Part shown: positions 5,718-36,085 of the stretch, in pieces
How the letters are laid out: every line of letters begins with the position of its first letter
How positions within the stretch are numbered: the first letter of the stretch is position 1
Source of the DNA: a virus
Taxonomy: Duplodnaviria; Caudoviricetes
Direction: 5' to 3' (one strand)
IMG/VR virus record: IMGVR_UViG_3300016466_000012
Span: 1 to 41,840 of that record
DNA: 41,840 bases
Program-made: the position numbers and the translations under genes
The notes under the pieces: model-generated
Database searches by the model: none
Told to the model about the DNA's origin: nothing
Seen by the model: the letters and a program-made list of their open reading frames with translations, nothing else

Positions 5718-6261
5718 TCCAGAATTTGTCCCATTCGGAACGGATCGTTTCAAACATTTGCTTATCGGCACTCAAAGGCACGGCGATGCCGACTTCGCCG
5801 TCAAAAACATATAAGTGAGCAGTCTCGATTCCAGTCACCATCATCTGGTGTTGCATCTGGACGGCATAGTGCTCTGGTATTTCACCGTTCTCGGCTTGCT
5901 TCCAGAGGTCGGAAGCCTTTCCCTTCATCGGGCATTTGATCTCTACGATCAATTCACCGAACAAGTCGATACCATCAAGAGAAGCACCATAGTCGCCAGA
6001 AACAAACACGCCGGTGCGCAGTATGCCAACGATTCCTTGATATACGTCACGCGCCAGCGGCTCAAGCTCTTGCCCTCTACGCATCGCATAATTCGATTTC
6101 GCATTTTCGCCTCTCTTAGCCTTGACTACATCTTTAGGCTTTTGCCACGGTGATAGACCCATAACAGCAGGAGTCTCTGAGGCCATGCGTTTCGTTCTGC
6201 GGAAGTCTAACCATTCCTGAGAACCTTGCACTAGGTCAATCTCTACGCAGCCTGTCTGCAT
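5701..6261 (-). CDS. YqaJ-like / lambda-exonuclease-family nuclease
   Basis: QGSQEWLDFR, ASE, GASLDG, EIKCP, HYAVQMQHQM. Confidence 0.9.
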   Translation of the reverse strand: MQTGCVEIDLVQGSQEWLDFRRTKRMASETPAVMGLSPWQKPKDVVKAKRGENAKSNYAMRRGQELEPLARDVYQGIVGILRTGVFVSGDYGASLDGIDLFGELIVEIKCPMKGKASDLWKQAENGEIPEHYAVQMQHQMMVTGIETAHLYVFDGEVGIAVPLSADKQMFETIRSEWDKFWSENFE

Positions 6262-6530
6262 CTGTATCTCTTTCCAATCTCTGATGGTGTAAGAGGCTTA
6301 GGTCTAGCAACGTCAGGCTTTTTGCCCCACTGATACACAGGCACATGAGATTGATAGTTCCTGTCCCAACCGCAGATATGTACCAAGTCCAGCACCCACA
6401 ATTCCTTCAGGTGACGCTGTGCTGTTCTTTGGGCTATTCCTAATTCAAAAGCCAAGTCATCTGATGTATACGCTTCTTTGTTCTGTAGATGTGCAATGAC
6501 TTTGTAAACCTGATACTTCATTGCAGTCAT
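6243..6530 (-). CDS. Winged-HTH DNA-binding protein
   Basis: TSDDLAFELGIAQRTAQRHLKEL; ATGA-coupled start at 6530. Confidence 0.65.
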   Translation of the reverse strand: MTAMKYQVYKVIAHLQNKEAYTSDDLAFELGIAQRTAQRHLKELWVLDLVHICGWDRNYQSHVPVYQWGKKPDVARPKPLTPSEIGKRYRCRQAA

Positions 6531-6646
6531 GAAAGAAGCCACCAAACCAGATAGAACATAACTGCAAACGGGAACAAGGCTCCTGCCATTGCACCAACAA
6601 TAGCGAACCCAAGCCACAAATCTTCAAAAAAAGATTTAATCCTCAT
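6527..6646 (-). CDS. 39-aa membrane peptide (not in ORF track)
   Basis: MRIKSFFEDLWLGFAIVGAMAGALFPFAVMFYLVWWLLS; ATGA overlaps with both neighbours. Confidence 0.7.
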   Translation of the reverse strand: MRIKSFFEDLWLGFAIVGAMAGALFPFAVMFYLVWWLLS

Positions 6647-9387: not shown

Positions 9388-9420
9388 TTTAGCCTCCGTT
9401 GTTGTTGTGCTGCGGAGTCC

Positions 9421-9485
9421 ATCATCCGGATTTTTTTCTGCGTGTCAACACTTGTGCTGAACTTTTTTTGTGGCACACTTGTGCC
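9421..9485. promoter_or_regulatory. Divergent promoter region with operator-like repeats
   Basis: Leftward TTGACA-16-GATGAT (9448-9421); rightward TTGTGC-16-CACACT with TGn; ACACTTGTGC at 9448 and 9475; palindrome GGCACA-CT-TGTGCC at 9472-9485. Confidence 0.6.
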
Positions 9486-9502
9486 TCCCATACGGAGGAA
9501 CC

Positions 9503-10462
9503 ATGCTCATCACACAAGATGAAGTTGACCGCTATGTGCCGCCCAAGACGGCTCTGGCTATCAAGTCAGCGGACTTGTACGCAGATGACGTAATTGAAGC
9601 CTTTTTGAATCCGACTGTGGCGCAAGGGGCTACATTGCCGTGGCCGAAGACTCACGAGAATCTTCGCTTCCGTCCGCAGGAGGTATCGCTATGGATGGGT
9701 ATAAACGGCCACGGAAAGTCGATGATGACCTCTCATGTGATGCTGGACATACTGTTTCAAGGTGAGACAGTCTGCATTGCATCTTTTGAGATGAAGCCTG
9801 TAGCTACACTCAGGCGTATGACTCGTCAGGCACTAGGCTTTGCTAGTCCTACTGAGTCATTCATTAAGCAGTTCCACAAGTTCCTAGATGGTCGCCTATG
9901 GTTGTATGACCAGCAGGGCACGGTAGACGGCAAGGAACTGCTAAAGGTCATCCGCTACTGTGCTGACGTTAAGGGTATCAATCACTTTGTGGTCGATAGC
10001 TTGATGAAGACCGTCAAGAATGAGGATGACTATAACGGTCAGAAGATGATGGTAGACGAACTCACTTCTATCGCTCGTGACCACAATATCCACATTCACC
10101 TGATTCACCATAGCCGCAAACTTGCTGACGAAACACAAGTGCCTGGGAAGTACGACAGCAAGGGTTCAGGATCCATTACGGACCAAGTTGACCAGTGCTT
10201 TTCCGTTTGGCGCAACAAAAAGAAAGAGGCTCGCGTAGCCAGAGGTGAAGAAGATGACGGTGTGGACGCTCTATTGGTATGCGATAAGAACCGTCATGGC
10301 GAGTGGGAGGGTCGCATCGGACTCTACTTCAATTCAGAAGGACAGTTCTATGGAGAAACTGAATCATGGAGACCGAGGTACACCGACAAAATCGACAAGC
10401 TATGCCAACAATCGCCAGATTCGTTGACGAATGTCGTTCAGTTTTCGGCGAAGTCAAAGTAA
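9503..10462 (+). CDS. SF4 (DnaB/T7 gp4-like) replicative helicase, no primase domain
   Basis: Walker A GINGHGKS, SFEM, Walker B FVVDSL, IHHSRK, KGSGSITDQVD, KNRHG; GGAGG RBS. Confidence 0.9.
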   Translation: MLITQDEVDRYVPPKTALAIKSADLYADDVIEAFLNPTVAQGATLPWPKTHENLRFRPQEVSLWMGINGHGKSMMTSHVMLDILFQGETVCIASFEMKPVATLRRMTRQALGFASPTESFIKQFHKFLDGRLWLYDQQGTVDGKELLKVIRYCADVKGINHFVVDSLMKTVKNEDDYNGQKMMVDELTSIARDHNIHIHLIHHSRKLADETQVPGKYDSKGSGSITDQVDQCFSVWRNKKKEARVARGEEDDGVDALLVCDKNRHGEWEGRIGLYFNSEGQFYGETESWRPRYTDKIDKLCQQSPDSLTNVVQFSAKSK

Positions 10463-10477
10463 GGTACGCGAGAGAAA

Positions 10478-10882
10478 ATGGAATCGAACGGGGAAATGCG
10501 GTTCGTAGTGTATTCGATGGAACACCTGAAAGCGGCTTTCTCGGCTGCGAGTCGGGCTTTGACTGGCGACTGCTTTGTGCTGACATTGCAGAGAGAGAAA
10601 GAAAAGAGAAGGAACGCGCAGAACAGGAGATATTGGGCAGTGCTGCACGAAATCGCCGAGCAACTAAATATAAGTGACGTAGAGGCTTGGCATGAATGGG
10701 CAAAGCGAAGATTCATAGGAGTAAAAGAAGTTTCCTTGCCAGACGGTGAGATTGTGGCAGTAGGCAAATCAAGCACAGAACTATCTGTCAAAGAGTTTGC
10801 CGACTACATGACAAGTATCGAAGCATGGGCAGTGGACCAGGGCGTAATCTTCAATGAGCTTCCTTCTTCAACACCTTCTTGA
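10478..10882 (+). CDS. NinB/Orf-like recombination protein
   Basis: RRNAQNRRYWAVLHEIAEQ, STELSVKEFADYMTSIEAWA. Confidence 0.8.
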   Translation: MESNGEMRFVVYSMEHLKAAFSAASRALTGDCFVLTLQREKEKRRNAQNRRYWAVLHEIAEQLNISDVEAWHEWAKRRFIGVKEVSLPDGEIVAVGKSSTELSVKEFADYMTSIEAWAVDQGVIFNELPSSTPS

Positions 10883-11144
10883 GTACCACGAACACGCAAA
10901 GCTGTTTCCTAAGAAACAGAAGTTTTCTACAAACGAACTCGCACTGCTAAGAGCCTTGAGCGAAGAACCTCAAACCACCAAAGAACTAGCAAAAAAGGTT
11001 GGTGTTCAATCGACAACAGTTGGACGGCTCATCACTCGACTCAACGAAGAATATGGTGGAATTGAAGTTCAGTCTTTCGGACGATCAGCGCCTTCCCTAT
11101 ACTGGCGTTCCGAAGGCTTTACCGCGATCTATGACGAAGTCTGA
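10854..11144 (+). CDS. Winged-HTH protein
   Basis: PQTTKELAKKVGVQSTTVGRLITRL. Confidence 0.65.
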   Translation: MSFLLQHLLEYHEHAKLFPKKQKFSTNELALLRALSEEPQTTKELAKKVGVQSTTVGRLITRLNEEYGGIEVQSFGRSAPSLYWRSEGFTAIYDEV

Positions 11145-11618: not shown

Positions 11619-11997
11619 GGGGAAGCGCGGAGAACTAGCCGTCTGTCACATAATCTTTGAGTTGACAGGATGGAACGCTCAGAGACGAGTCAAGAATGAC
11701 CACGGTGACTCTGATCTGATTGGTGTTCCTGGTTGGTCAGTAGAAGTCAAGGATCATGCCAAGTCTACCCTCGGAGATGTACGAGAGTGGTGGGCACAGG
11801 CTTGCCACCAATCCAATGGATTAGTTCCGCTGCTCGTTTACAAACGTCAGCGTGGCGAATGGAGGGCCGTCTATCCACTATGTGTTCACCTAACAACCCA
11901 GGAAGCAGACTGGTGGAAAGATTTTGACTTTACAGTAGAAACTTCAATGGAAGGATGGGCAGCCACGGCAAGGGAGATTTGCAGTGGGTGTGATTGA
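11596..11997 (+). CDS. PD-(D/E)xK Holliday-junction resolvase-like nuclease
   Basis: SRNKGKRGE, SDL, VEVK. Confidence 0.75.
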   Translation: MSAFSRNKGKRGELAVCHIIFELTGWNAQRRVKNDHGDSDLIGVPGWSVEVKDHAKSTLGDVREWWAQACHQSNGLVPLLVYKRQRGEWRAVYPLCVHLTTQEADWWKDFDFTVETSMEGWAATAREICSGCD

Positions 11998-12505
11998 GCG
12001 TATGACCCGAGCAACAACGAGTACCAATCTTAAGTGCGATGAGCTGCACTTTGACGCTGATCTGATTGCAAGCAGTGGATTTGTGGCAAGGCGAAGAGGA
12101 CTAGGAGCCTTGGCGTTTTGGTCCAAGTATGCACAGGACAATTCCAAAACGAAGGAATTGCTGCGAGAGCTGATGACACAGTTCGTCGGTAAGAAACGCC
12201 AGGAGAGATCGCACCTGCCCAAACGTATGCTTCACGACATCGCAGAAGCAGCTCTCTGCTACTGGCTAACAGATGTCTGTCGATCATGTAAGGGCGTGAA
12301 ATTTGAGGCTCAAAACCAGGTGCTTACGGACAAGGTTTGCAAGCGTTGCCGTGGAACAGGCAAAGAAGCGCCTCCTGCGGCACAAAACTGTGGCATTGAC
12401 TTAGATAATAACCGCTTTCGAGAAGAGTTTTCAGACTGCATCGAAATTTTGCACCATGCATTTATGGACTATGCATCCAGACTTGCAAGGAAAGCGAAAC
12501 GGTGA
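11984..12505 (+). CDS. Q-like late antiterminator (zinc finger)
   Basis: CRSCKG...CKRCRGTG; last gene of the nin-like operon, upstream of a promoter-terminator pair. Confidence 0.7.
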   Translation: MGVIERMTRATTSTNLKCDELHFDADLIASSGFVARRRGLGALAFWSKYAQDNSKTKELLRELMTQFVGKKRQERSHLPKRMLHDIAEAALCYWLTDVCRSCKGVKFEAQNQVLTDKVCKRCRGTGKEAPPAAQNCGIDLDNNRFREEFSDCIEILHHAFMDYASRLARKAKR

Positions 12506-12511
12506 TATTGT
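12483..12511 (+). promoter_or_regulatory. Sigma70-type promoter driving the non-coding structured region
   Basis: TTGCAA-17 nt-TATTGT with extended -10 TG; predicted start near 12518. Confidence 0.7.
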
Positions 12512-12517
12512 TGTAGT

Positions 12518-12900
12518 GTCTGATCTGGCAGTCAGGCATTCATCCATACCCCGGTGTAGTGATAGGGGCTTGTGTGGTCACAACGCATATGGATGAGTGC
12601 CAAGTGATTGCCCAAGCCAAGGGCCAAGCCTCTATCAGTACATTGGGGTTTTTCTTTGGATCAGACCGTACTGTCCGCGTAGCAATGCGCCTGTAGGGGG
12701 CGGCTGACAAGAGAACCCGAGCGCCATTACCCAGCGCAGCTAGGCTTCCATAGGCACTAGCACGAACGAGGACGGCATTTTGATGCACGGCGATTAGCAC
12801 CCGTAAGGTGGCCTCGGAAGAAGAATATGGCCCGAGAGGGAGATAGGATTTTTATCCTATAGGTCTTTTGATTCAGGGGGATCAAAAGCCTTGGGTTTCC
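12518..12900 (+). ncRNA. Putative large structured non-coding RNA with attenuator-like 5' domain
   Basis: No credible ORF; helices 12527-12548/12588-12612 and 12549-12572/12625-12648; 12518-12526 pairs with 12658-12666; several downstream hairpins, two with GNRA loops. Confidence 0.6.
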
Positions 12901-12902
12901 TA

Positions 12903-12931
12903 TTGACTAAAATAAATCAACAACCTATTAT
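12903..12931 (+). promoter_or_regulatory. Late promoter (pR'-like)
   Basis: TTGACT-17 nt-TATTAT. Confidence 0.75.
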
Positions 12932-13001
12932 CGTGCCAAGAACTATAACTATCTTGACTCAACCATAGTTGTGGTTCGCTTGCCCTCCGCGTAGTAAATT
13001 A

Positions 13002-13025
13002 ACCCGCTTCGGCGGGTATTTTTTT
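13002..13025 (+). terminator. Intrinsic terminator (tR'-like)
   Basis: ACCCGC-TTCG-GCGGGT followed by A and T7. Confidence 0.85.
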
Positions 13026-13036
13026 GGGAGAAGATC

Positions 13037-13168
13037 ATGCCGATGGTCGGAAAGACTAAGTACCCTTACACCGCTGCCGGTATGGAAGCCGCTAAGAAAG
13101 CTGCTGCCAAGAAAGGCAAGCCTATGGCTAAGACCACCTGGAAGCTTGACGGGAAGAAAAAGAAATGA
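13037..13168 (+). CDS. 43-aa Lys/Ala-rich basic protein (not in ORF track)
   Basis: MPMVGKTKYPYTAAGMEAAKKAAAKKGK...; GGAG RBS. Confidence 0.75.
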   Translation: MPMVGKTKYPYTAAGMEAAKKAAAKKGKPMAKTTWKLDGKKKK

Positions 13169-13323
13169 AGATGACCAAAGCTGAGAAGAAGGTTGGCAAG
13201 GTAATGCGCGAGTACAAGAAGGGTGAGCTGCATTCGGGTAAGGGTGGTAAGGTAGTAAAGTCTCCGAAGCAGGCTATTGCAATTGCTCTGTCTCAGGCTG
13301 GAATGTCGAGGAAGAAGAAATGA
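13165..13323 (+). CDS. 52-aa basic protein, DUF6496-like (not in ORF track)
   Basis: KVGKVMREYKKGELHSG...KQAIAIALSQAG; ATGA-coupled. Confidence 0.8.
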   Translation: MKMTKAEKKVGKVMREYKKGELHSGKGGKVVKSPKQAIAIALSQAGMSRKKK

Positions 13324-13463
13324 AACCTGGTCTCTACGCAAACATCCACGCAAAGCGCAAGCGTATCGCTGAAGGATCGGGCGAGAAGATGCGGAAGCCT
13401 GGAGCTAAAGGCGCACCTACAGCCAAAGCATTTAAGGCTGCTGCGAAAACGGCCAAGAAGTGA
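13320..13463 (+). CDS. 47-aa basic protein (not in ORF track)
   Basis: MKPGLYANIHAKRKRIAEGSGEKMRKPGAKGAPT...; ATGA-coupled. Confidence 0.8.
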   Translation: MKPGLYANIHAKRKRIAEGSGEKMRKPGAKGAPTAKAFKAAAKTAKK

Positions 13464-34100: not shown

Positions 34101-34856
34101 ATGCCAAAGGTAAAGATTTCGGACTTTAGTACGACAGCCGGTAACAACACCGACATTAACAGCATCAATATCGCTGAAGGTTGTGCGCCTTCCGGTATCA
34201 ATGATGCTATCCGTACCCTGATGGCTTATCTCAAGGATTGGCAATCTGGTGCTGTCGCTCAGGACAATAGTTTCAATGGTGCTGTGACTGTCTCTGGTGC
34301 AACAGTCCTGAGTTCTACTCTGGCTGTTACTGGAAACCAAACAAATAGCGGCACTCTTACCGTAACTGGCGGCACTACTTTCACTGGCGCTTCGGTAATG
34401 AGCAGTGACCTTAATGTTGCTGGCAAGACCACGCTTACTGGTTCTTCCAGCAAGGCTGCACTGGTAATCCCGAATGCTATGGAAGACATTACTGTATCTG
34501 CTACGGCTGCCACTGGTACGATTAACTATGACGTAACCACTCAGAGCGTTCTGTATTACACCAGCAATGCGTCTGCTAACTGGACTGTCAACTTCCGTGG
34601 ATCTAGCGGCACTTCGCTGAATACGCTGATGGCTACTGGTGAGTCGATTACTGCTACTTTCATTGTGACGCAAGGTTCTACGGCTTATTACAATTCTGCC
34701 GTACAAGTAGATGGTTCTTCTGTCACTCCCAAGTGGCAAGGTGGTACTGCTCCTACTGCTGGTAATGCTTCGTCTATTGACGCTTATACCTATACCATTA
34801 TCAAGACGGGTAGTGCTACGTTTACCGTTCTGGCTGCTCAAACCAAGTTTGCTTAA
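34101..34856 (+). CDS. Tail fibre / adhesin carrier protein
   Basis: INIAEGCAPSGINDAIR N-terminus; Thr/Ser/Gly-rich; KWQGGTAPT..IDAYTYTIIK. Confidence 0.7.
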   Translation: MPKVKISDFSTTAGNNTDINSINIAEGCAPSGINDAIRTLMAYLKDWQSGAVAQDNSFNGAVTVSGATVLSSTLAVTGNQTNSGTLTVTGGTTFTGASVMSSDLNVAGKTTLTGSSSKAALVIPNAMEDITVSATAATGTINYDVTTQSVLYYTSNASANWTVNFRGSSGTSLNTLMATGESITATFIVTQGSTAYYNSAVQVDGSSVTPKWQGGTAPTAGNASSIDAYTYTIIKTGSATFTVLAAQTKFA

Positions 34857-34963
34857 GGAATAGTTATGCCACCCATTCTATCTGCCTTTGGCTCACTGTC
34901 TCCGCGAGGATTCGGCCTGTTTACTGCTGCTGGTGGAATCACGCCCACCGTGGAATACCTAGT
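34840..34963 (+). repeat. 124-bp exact direct repeat, copy 2
   Basis: Identical to 1-124. Confidence 0.95.
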
Positions 34964-35711
34964 TGTTGCTGGTGGGGGGGGCGGGGGTAACAGTTACGCT
35001 GGCGGTGGTGGCGGCGCTGGTGGGTTTAGGACCGCCACTAACTACTCTGTTGCCACAGGTGTTGCGTATACCGTGACCGTTGGCGGCGGTGGCGTTGCTG
35101 CCGCCAGCGGAAGCAATTCTGTCTTTCACACGATTACCTCTACAGGCGGCGGTCGCGGCGGAAGCTATGGCAGCACCGGTCCAGCAAGCGGTGGATCGGG
35201 CGGCGGCGCTAACTATAACAGCGGAAATACCGGCGGCACCGGAACCAGCGGGCAGGGTAATGCCGGTGGTGATTCAATCCCTGGCGGCGGCGGCGGCGGC
35301 GGCGGAGCAAGTGCGGCTGGCGCAAACGCAACAAGCGCAGAAGCAGGTGATGGCGGCAACGGCACCGCGTCATCAATCAGTGGCTCATCGGTAACTTATG
35401 CGGGCGGCGGCGGCGGCGGGTTTCAAACTGGGTATGCCGGCAGCGACCCCGGAGAGGGCGGATCAGGCGGTGGTGGCGCTGGGGCGGCAACTGGCGGCGG
35501 CACCGGGGGCGCTGGTTCGGCTAATTCTGGTGGTGGCGGCGGTGGTTCAAGTGATGTTGGAACAGGCGGCGCTGGCGGTTCCGGCATCGTCATTATCCGG
35601 TATCCAGACACCTATTCCGCCGCCGCATCTACTACCGGCTCGCCGACAATTACAGTGTCTGGCGGGTATCGTATTTACAAGTGGACAGGCTCTGGCTCCA
35701 TCACGTTCTGA
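34866..35711 (+). CDS. Glycine-rich tail adhesin-like protein, allele B
   Basis: Same N-terminus and near-identical C-terminal ~45 aa as 27-911; different loops between the Gly runs. Confidence 0.75.
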   Translation: MPPILSAFGSLSPRGFGLFTAAGGITPTVEYLVVAGGGGGGNSYAGGGGGAGGFRTATNYSVATGVAYTVTVGGGGVAAASGSNSVFHTITSTGGGRGGSYGSTGPASGGSGGGANYNSGNTGGTGTSGQGNAGGDSIPGGGGGGGGASAAGANATSAEAGDGGNGTASSISGSSVTYAGGGGGGFQTGYAGSDPGEGGSGGGGAGAATGGGTGGAGSANSGGGGGGSSDVGTGGAGGSGIVIIRYPDTYSAAASTTGSPTITVSGGYRIYKWTGSGSITF

Positions 35712-35719
35712 GGTTACGT

Positions 35720-36085
35720 ATGGCTCACTTCGCACAACTCGACGAAAACAACGTGGTGACACAGGTCATCGTCGTCCACAACAACGAGTGCCTTGATGCC
35801 GACGGCAATGAGTCCGAGAGCGTAGGTGTGGCATTCTGCCAATCACTTTTTGGAGGTAACTGGAAGCAAACCTCCTACAACAGCAACATCCGCAAGAACT
35901 ACGCTGGGATTGGTTACGCCTACCACGCTGACATTGATGCATTCGTGCCGCCGAAGCCCTATGCATCTTGGGTATTGAATTCAAGTACGGCACAATGGGA
36001 AGCGCCAGTTGCTATGCCTAATGATGGTGAGCGCTATACCTGGGATGAAGCAGCTCAAGCCTGGGTGCAAGTGGAGGTCGCGTAA
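35720..36085 (+). CDS. Conserved phage tail-associated protein (MAHFA-type), copy B
   Basis: Paralog of 1750-2115; GAGG RBS before ATG 35720. Confidence 0.75.
   Translation: MAHFAQLDENNVVTQVIVVHNNECLDADGNESESVGVAFCQSLFGGNWKQTSYNSNIRKNYAGIGYAYHADIDAFVPPKPYASWVLNSSTAQWEAPVAMPNDGERYTWDEAAQAWVQVEVA

Follow-up and report, generated by a model that had tools for sequence, protein, structure and literature searches.

The question raised by this locus is how a phage that carries a helicase gene and no recognizable initiator or primase starts to replicate its DNA, and whether a structured RNA in its longest gene-free stretch could account for this. The window, that is, the whole stretch of 41,840 nucleotides analyzed here (IMG/VR record IMGVR_UViG_3300016466_000012), is the whole of a 41.8-kb linear virus record; because the record is linear and its final gene is cut, part of the late-region DNA is missing. 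It represents a podophage with SU10-like head genes, in which transcription diverges at about 9.4 kb into a leftward recombination operon and a rightward operon with genes, in this order, for a helicase, NinB, a small HTH protein, a nuclease, a DUF3310 protein, a RusA-like protein and a Q-like protein. No initiator gene precedes the helicase in this early operon. The observation of the initial annotation that neither initiator nor primase is visible held up across the 66 ORFs of this record, which is not closed, in a DUF1376 search and in phmmer searches with ten initiator types. Integrase, repressor and par genes are likewise lacking among the 66 ORFs. Two small winged-helix proteins, encoded at 6243-6617 and 10854-11144, are conceivable origin binders and are counted against the reading developed below; for the latter, comparison with the atlas gave generic helix-turn-helix leads alone, all below 0.9. 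The features around the gene-free stretch are the following.

9506..10462, + strand: gene for a DnaB/T7 gp4-like helicase (AAA_25) that lacks a primase domain, heading the rightward early operon
11984..12505, + strand: Q-like antiterminator gene (phrog_127, E 5.6e-7)
12483..12511, + strand: sigma70-type promoter with extended -10 (TTGCAA 12483-88, 17 nt, TATTGT 12506-11, TG 12503-04)
12518..12659, + strand: leader (24 sequences; z -5.7)
12664..12900, + strand: domain A, about 240 nt, with covarying helices (12 sequences)
12901..12950, no strand assigned: A+T-rich tract (72%), a candidate unwinding site; 0.05% of 50-nt windows are equally AT-rich
12938..13025, + strand: separate short late leader with an intrinsic terminator (13002-25), kept in relatives including contig L003

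The promoter noted initially, which is overlapped by the 3' end of the Q-like gene and predicted to start transcription at about 12517-12518, is present and heads what we refer to as the cassette. Its score is just 8/12, which is why it is absent from the promoter-scan list; a promoter-like pair nevertheless stops 6-7 nt upstream of the leader in all 19 distinct relatives, and L003 has a promoter at the same position. Given that the promoter pattern is lenient, the evidence lies in this fixed spacing to the leader rather than in the pattern itself. The stretch into which the promoter points was correctly described as the largest one free of ORFs: in our gene list, 12506-13037 is the longest gap without genes (532 nt; the runner-up has 246 nt), and no ORF is conserved across 8 homologs, the longest frames of which vary in strand, frame and length. 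The region 12505-12900 folds with z -3.9 on the + strand and z -2.1 on the - strand; the signal comes mainly from the leader, domain A by itself reaching z -1.8 with pseudoknots left out. As also noted initially, a late promoter/terminator pair of its own lies just downstream, the A+T-rich tract doubling as the late promoter (TTGACT-17-TATTAT, 12903-31). The late leader, which we take to be pR'/tR'-like and which is a candidate Q target, forms the right edge of an exchangeable slot. This late leader, with its hairpin and terminator, is common to relatives of types A, B and protein, as defined below. The skew check proposed in the initial annotation was uninformative: the turn in cumulative GC skew falls at about 9.5 kb, the point of divergent transcription, and neither this skew nor that of four-fold sites switches at the element (12.7 kb).

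The leader consists of four parts.

12518-37, + strand: 5' hairpin
12535-48 with 12589-601, + strand: antiterminator stem
12548-72 with 12626-49, + strand: long terminator stem, which excludes the antiterminator stem
12649-57, + strand: U-tract

A 17-mer taken from the leader, which is about 140 nt long, matched 34 viral stretches, of which 32 proved true. In the 24 sequences compared, the full-length leader forms the long stem ahead of the U-tract, and a transcript that ends before the terminator stem mostly folds the alternative stem. The antiterminator halves differ between phages yet match their own partners (-20.7 versus -11.2 +/- 0.7 kcal/mol for permuted halves, 0/5000). Since the terminator and antiterminator stems are mutually exclusive, the leader has the anatomy of an attenuator; exclusive stems, U-tract and covariation are all present in the 24 sequences, and the folding models suggest that the leader is probably a transcription attenuator. 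No Rfam family matches it, c4 (RF01695) included, and the strict promoter scan lists no minus-strand promoter over it.

Domain A, downstream of the leader, is resolved into the following elements.

12672-12709, + strand: P1, covarying helix
12721-37, + strand: P2
12739-61, + strand: P3, covaries
12767-71 with 12812-16, + strand: P4, enclosing P5 and P6; covaries
12831-40, + strand: P7, with a GAGA loop
12843-60, + strand: P8, covaries
12865-88, + strand: P9, variable and partly broken
12748..12830, + strand: PK2, predicted pseudoknot of the P3 loop (12748-51) with 12827-30, paired in 12/12 sequences
12729..12896, + strand: PK1, predicted pseudoknot of the P2 loop (12729-33) with the 3' end (12892-96)

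We found domain A in 18 other contigs, comprising 9 close IMG/VR contigs, 5 metagenome contigs and 4 divergent ones. In a 14-mer scan, 3 of 120 loci were true, the rest mostly arising by chance; 5 of 21 loci from the metagenome scan were true, and a relaxed-pattern scan gave 22 loci, 9 by chance. Across 12 distinct sequences, the structure of 65 pairs has 90% of its cells paired and 14 pairs changed on both sides; none of 500 shuffles was as good and slid controls were 34-44% paired, with the proviso that the structure was drawn from the same, related sequences, so that the controls lean in its favour. One of five covariation measures, the number of further pair types, is not above control (26 versus 30 in shuffled alignments). 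Stronger evidence for the fold comes from the divergent lineage, the sequences of which keep P1, P4 and PK2 with new letters. Two of the four PK2 pairs are compensatory, in two separate lineages. PK1 is invariant across 10 close sequences; in the divergent contig L359, loop and 3' tail are both replaced and present 9 complementary bases (read by eye), although the PK1 of this lineage is misaligned and was therefore scored as unpaired in the covariation count.

All hairpins listed in the initial annotation can form, and those at 12739-61, 12767/12816 and 12843-60 covary. The one at 12865-88 does not fare as well (P9), and the GNRA hairpin GCGTA-GCAA-TGCGC (12677-90) was rejected: it is disrupted in 6 of the 10 informative sequences, and it competes with the longer covarying helix 12672-12709. 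Within the P4 junction, GCAT-TTTG-ATGC is lineage-restricted and kept in just 8/12 sequences, and CC-GTAA-GG is better described as CACC/GGTG with a 5-nt loop. No Rfam match was detected in the window, ARRPOF and RF02932 included (for RF02932, to E<=10), and 4 other loci gave nothing in Rfam except int-alpA and weak chance matches. A BLASTN search of cultured phages with the region returned a single 30-nt chance match. A structured RNA new to Rfam, with homologs and covariation, is supported. The description as one stand-alone 390-nt RNA proved too simple, because domain A directly follows an ORF, without a leader, in L289/L301, so that leader and domain A are separable. An HNH gene suspected ahead of A in these two contigs turned out to be an unrelated 225-aa ORF. 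Domain A, as modeled, is a conserved, uncatalogued RNA, predicted to be doubly pseudoknotted, behind a probable attenuator.

The same leader heads domain A, the Betaproteobacteria-1 RNA of Rfam (RF02932; hereafter B) or a third fold, C. B is the version found in most relatives, and matches to it were obtained for 8 of the 13 leader loci scanned, with 68-98 bits; C is represented by two sequences (L024:4178-4428 and L029:10103-10350) without an Rfam match. Besides a G6-TA-G7 tract, fold C has a direct repeat of 9 nt in a position similar to that of a repeat in B. Among the 9 relatives of the Q-like gene for which the contig covers the slot, 4 contain A, 4 contain B (3 of them identical) and 1 has the protein version. 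A and B are without detectable homology at the level of sequence models: the window does not reach the RF02932 threshold (gathering 49.4 bits) or even E<=10, the type-A contig L008 is negative as well, and a model of A, run over 1.25 Mb, picked up none of the B loci at E<=1, its 9 matches in 90 sources all being of type A.

The single protein-type representative, L003, is one 6.9-kb contig whose left flank, ending at the promoter, is 89% identical to that of the type-A contig L002, and whose right flank, beginning at the late promoter, is 87% identical. Between these flanks, it carries an int-alpA-like leader (35.4 bits, below the 35.8 cut-off), a DUF1376 ORF that matches positions 1-128 of 345, the N-terminal half, of a primosomal family, iteron-like repeats (3x11-bp and 3x14-bp), an AT-rich run and an HNH gene. 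In phage lambda, O combines a DNA-binding N-terminal half, iterons and a helicase-contacting C-terminal half, and the L003 slot, judged by its sequence, has the layout of a protein origin. The int-alpA-like RNA (RF02996) lies directly 5' of initiator genes in both L003:647-714 (35.4 bits) and L359:5245-5312 (26.7 bits), both below the cut-off. A late-promoter scan identified no further slot type, L519 being a chance match.

The Rfam listing of RF02932 assigns no function to B, and the motif is reportedly due to the same RNA-motif survey that discusses ARRPOF. B runs about 90 nt beyond the Rfam model (e.g., L193:9915-10130 and L012:9651-9859, the latter on the - strand). An 8-nt segment within this extension recurs just past the closing helix at the 3' flank, and the two copies co-vary: per-position identity is 0.72-0.98 versus 0.35-0.79 when permuted (43 distinct elements), with 8.0 matches versus 5.8 +/- 0.16 permuted (48 elements, 0/5000). 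No co-varying complement of the repeat was found within the RNA (438/3000 permutations were equally good); with no partner inside, the natural partner of the segment would be the DNA template strand beside the AT-rich tract, which makes it a candidate DNA guide. No co-varying, flank-matched direct repeat was found for domain A. A scan of half of the genome collection for B yielded at least 5 true loci among 120. In the cultured Acidovorax phage AP1 (L512, OM049504.1), an unannotated B is located at approximately 11870-12070, immediately after ParB-like, helicase and primase genes. B also occurs in non-phage surroundings in Burkholderiaceae (L431:5915-6132, - strand, and L429:5922-6130; Burkholderia sp. 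Bp9142 and Paraburkholderia metrosideri). In the open-access literature, no function is reported for Betaproteobacteria-1, papers that match the name being unrelated by title and abstract, and the main text of PMC5737381 does not mention it.

The distribution of initiator genes suggests what the slot may do. Out of 80 loci related to the helicase, 51 with at least 2.5 kb upstream were counted: a full initiator lies upstream in 0/12 relatives at >=73% identity versus 35/39 at 42-61%, a contrast essentially between one clade and several, obtained with queries from the distant group and with many short contigs. For B, 78 loci on contigs of at least 4 kb were reduced to 73 contigs by dropping 5 duplicates; by phmmer, none of these shows a full initiator, 23 have an orphan C-terminal half, 3 an N-terminal half only (DUF1376) and 4 a Toprim primase, and two more B loci precede T7-type primase-helicases by inspection. 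The orphan C-terminal half matches positions 179-259 of 383 of phrog_270, a replication-initiation family; the commonest order is cro, B, C-terminal half, and L427 has, by inspection, B followed by a C-terminal-half-like ORF and a DnaB-like ORF. The 106-aa DUF1376 N-terminal half found alongside B in L022:11730-12050 (- strand), L030 and L042 lacks the repeat-bearing linker and may be a remnant or a regulator. Anti-correlation with initiators, a check proposed in the initial annotation, is seen for the helicase family and for B; its strict form is broken for A: besides divergent A, four contigs of one lineage (L359, L360/L383, L387 and L388) carry both a full initiator and a gene for a primase zinc finger, A being inserted where the sister contig L364 carries an ORF. 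In this one lineage, A thus shows the co-occurrence with a protein initiator that the initial annotation named as refuting the origin hypothesis. In these contigs A could be a second origin. Stand-alone primase zinc-finger ORFs of about 140 aa, without a Toprim domain, are also found between initiator and helicase in L356-L366 and L370-L378.

Because of the one-for-one swap in L003, and because full initiators are anti-correlated with the element across the helicase family, we consider it reasonably probable that the cassette is an RNA-dependent replication origin that replaces the DNA-opening half of the initiator and probably not the primase. Several points weigh against this reading: divergent A beside a full initiator, the N-terminal halves kept in three B contigs, the reliance on one contig for L003, B in non-phage surroundings, skew that does not mark the site, the second role of the AT-rich tract as a promoter, the lack of a co-varying repeat in A and the low z of domain A by itself. 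Of the proposed replacement of initiator and primase, the part concerning the initiator is supported by gene context, and the part concerning the primase is not, considering that B adjoins primases in at least 4 contigs by phmmer and in 2 by inspection. As B coexists with primases and not with full initiators, the RNA is more likely an opener than a primer; we favour the opener, and a ColE1-type primer in place of the primase is not supported. Read-through of the attenuator would yield the predicted doubly pseudoknotted RNA, which would do the work of an initiator protein by keeping the neighbouring AT-rich DNA open. At the outset, the leader would fold as antiterminator, and a signal, possibly the terminated leader itself acting in trans in the manner of the P4 CI RNA, would then shift it to the terminator. 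The read-through RNA could remain on its template and form an R-loop at the RNA 3' end, much like the T4 origin transcripts, which do so at an AT-rich element, or the PK1 loop could capture the displaced strand. The phage helicase would then load on the opened DNA, with priming by the host primase or by the 3' end of the RNA.

RNA-started replication is already known for ColE1, T4 and some mycobacterial prophages, and by analogy the cassette likely works like the T4/ColE1 class. T4 oriF and oriG combine a promoter, a transcript and a downstream AT-rich unwinding element at which the phage helicase is loaded without an initiator protein (PMC3016281). The window has a promoter (12483-511) followed by an AT-rich element (12901-50, the late promoter tract); unlike the cassette, the T4 origins span about 100 bp, are not sequence-specific and involve no folded RNA or attenuator, and T4 also brings a primase and an RNase H of its own (PMC3016281). 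No primase was found in the window. As in ColE1, no element-encoded initiator is present, within the 66 ORFs of a record that is not closed; in ColE1, the antisense RNA I overlaps the 5' end of RNA II, and no antisense RNA gene was identified in the window by the strict promoter scan. In cluster A mycobacteriophages, a non-coding RNA region stands in for the Rep protein of related phages, serving plasmid-prophage maintenance beside parABS (PMC7157519); genes for par, integrase or repressor are not seen in the window. The ARRPOF RNA of the Fusobacterium plasmid pKH9 has about 255 nt and contains several pseudoknots; the region to which it belongs suffices for replication when the rep gene is absent (PMC5737381 and PMC12990946). 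A rep gene is found alongside ARRPOF (PMC5737381), just as an initiator is found alongside divergent A, and ARRPOF differs from A in belonging to a plasmid of Fusobacteria and in having no sequence or model match in the window. In P4, RNA-triggered premature termination involving CI, seqA and seqC silences replication genes (PMC4825925), and premature termination in the cassette leader would similarly shut off a replication function, although, unlike c4 (RF01695), this leader has no Rfam match. Another counterpart of A is B, which shares the slot and leader in close relatives, is of similar size when its 3' extension is included and is mostly followed by AT-rich DNA; the two differ in that neither matches the other and that the flank-matched direct repeat is confined to B. 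These sequence tests place the cassette outside RF02932, ARRPOF and c4.

Several other explanations address the same observations. The cassette might encode an exchangeable trans-acting small RNA, such as one that acts as a decoy for a protein of the host or of a defence system, residing in a slot prone to recombination and playing no part in replication. In its favour are the cassette's own promoter and leader, the conserved unpaired stretches within A, the insertion of A next to a full initiator in contigs of the divergent lineage, B in the non-phage context of L429 and L431 and the HNH-like genes often carried by the slot. It leaves unexplained the loss of the initiator in the close clade, the orphan C-terminal halves behind B, the L003 swap and the flank-matched repeat of B, and we regard it as unlikely. 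HK022 put is a persistent antiterminator RNA, and a cis-acting regulator of this kind, letting polymerase enter downstream genes, could be envisaged given that B often follows cro and a terminator and precedes early genes, and that A in the window lies immediately ahead of the late genes. However, the window has a Q-like gene along with a late promoter that is separate from the cassette and a terminator, L003 has the same flanks without any such RNA, and it is the state of the initiator gene that shows the correlation, so this possibility appears quite improbable.

The HNH genes that adjoin the slot in L003, L173, L183 and L184, along with HNH-like ORFs in L004 and L020, bring to mind HEARO, an RNA associated with a mobile HNH nuclease, and the cassette RNA could in principle be the partner or guide of such a nuclease that spreads through this slot; no HNH gene of this kind accompanies the cassette in the window, nor is one present at most of the A and B loci, and L003 has one together with neither A nor B, which makes this account very hard to credit. 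A closer relative of the preferred reading is an origin that folds as single-stranded DNA, of the primosome-assembly or single-strand-origin type, with transcription merely exposing it. The evidence from gene context would be identical, and covariation cannot tell RNA from single-stranded DNA (PMC5737381). The G-U pairs retained in P1c and P3 and the GNRA loops that recur in P7 variants and in the P5 variant of L276/L277 favour RNA, without proving it, in agreement with the initial annotation; folding is also stronger on + than on -, and what the probable attenuator would gate is a transcript. We therefore consider a single-stranded DNA origin very unlikely.

Within the reading as an RNA-dependent origin, a broader and more speculative generalization, to which we give considerably less credence, is that the unrelated pseudoknotted RNAs A, B and C have repeatedly replaced the DNA-binding half of O-type initiators in lambdoid-type phages, opening origins by base-pairing and recruiting the helicase either directly or via the orphan C-terminal half. 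B would recognize the origin through its 8-nt internal guide that matches the 3' flank, and A through the pairing of a loop with its own 3'-end sequence. If true, these RNAs would be RNA-guided replication initiators rather than primers. The reading as an RNA-dependent origin, if right, would by itself assign a function to an orphan Rfam family, add one new RNA fold and account for the many environmental phages with a helicase or half an initiator and no origin binder. As a vector component, such an origin, compact, free of protein and under attenuator control, would be useful as well. The slot has natural variants of the protein type and the RNA type with near-identical flanks, and AP1, which carries B, is cultured. 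In the open-access literature, we found neither a folded RNA that would swap one-for-one with an O-type initiator module nor a paper on the domain A RNA, although the 10,000 viral candidates of PMC10690425 could include A or the leader.

No tRNA or tmRNA was found in the window. The 118-nt divergent control region (9388-9505) has no adjoining repressor or cro, which is unusual for such a gene order, and the late region opens with a string of tiny lysine-rich ORFs (13038-13463), DUF6496 included. A glycine-rich gene and a small downstream gene are duplicated between 1-2115 and 34840-36085, with 71-91% identity over the listed stretches, possibly as a copy of a tail-fibre or receptor module.
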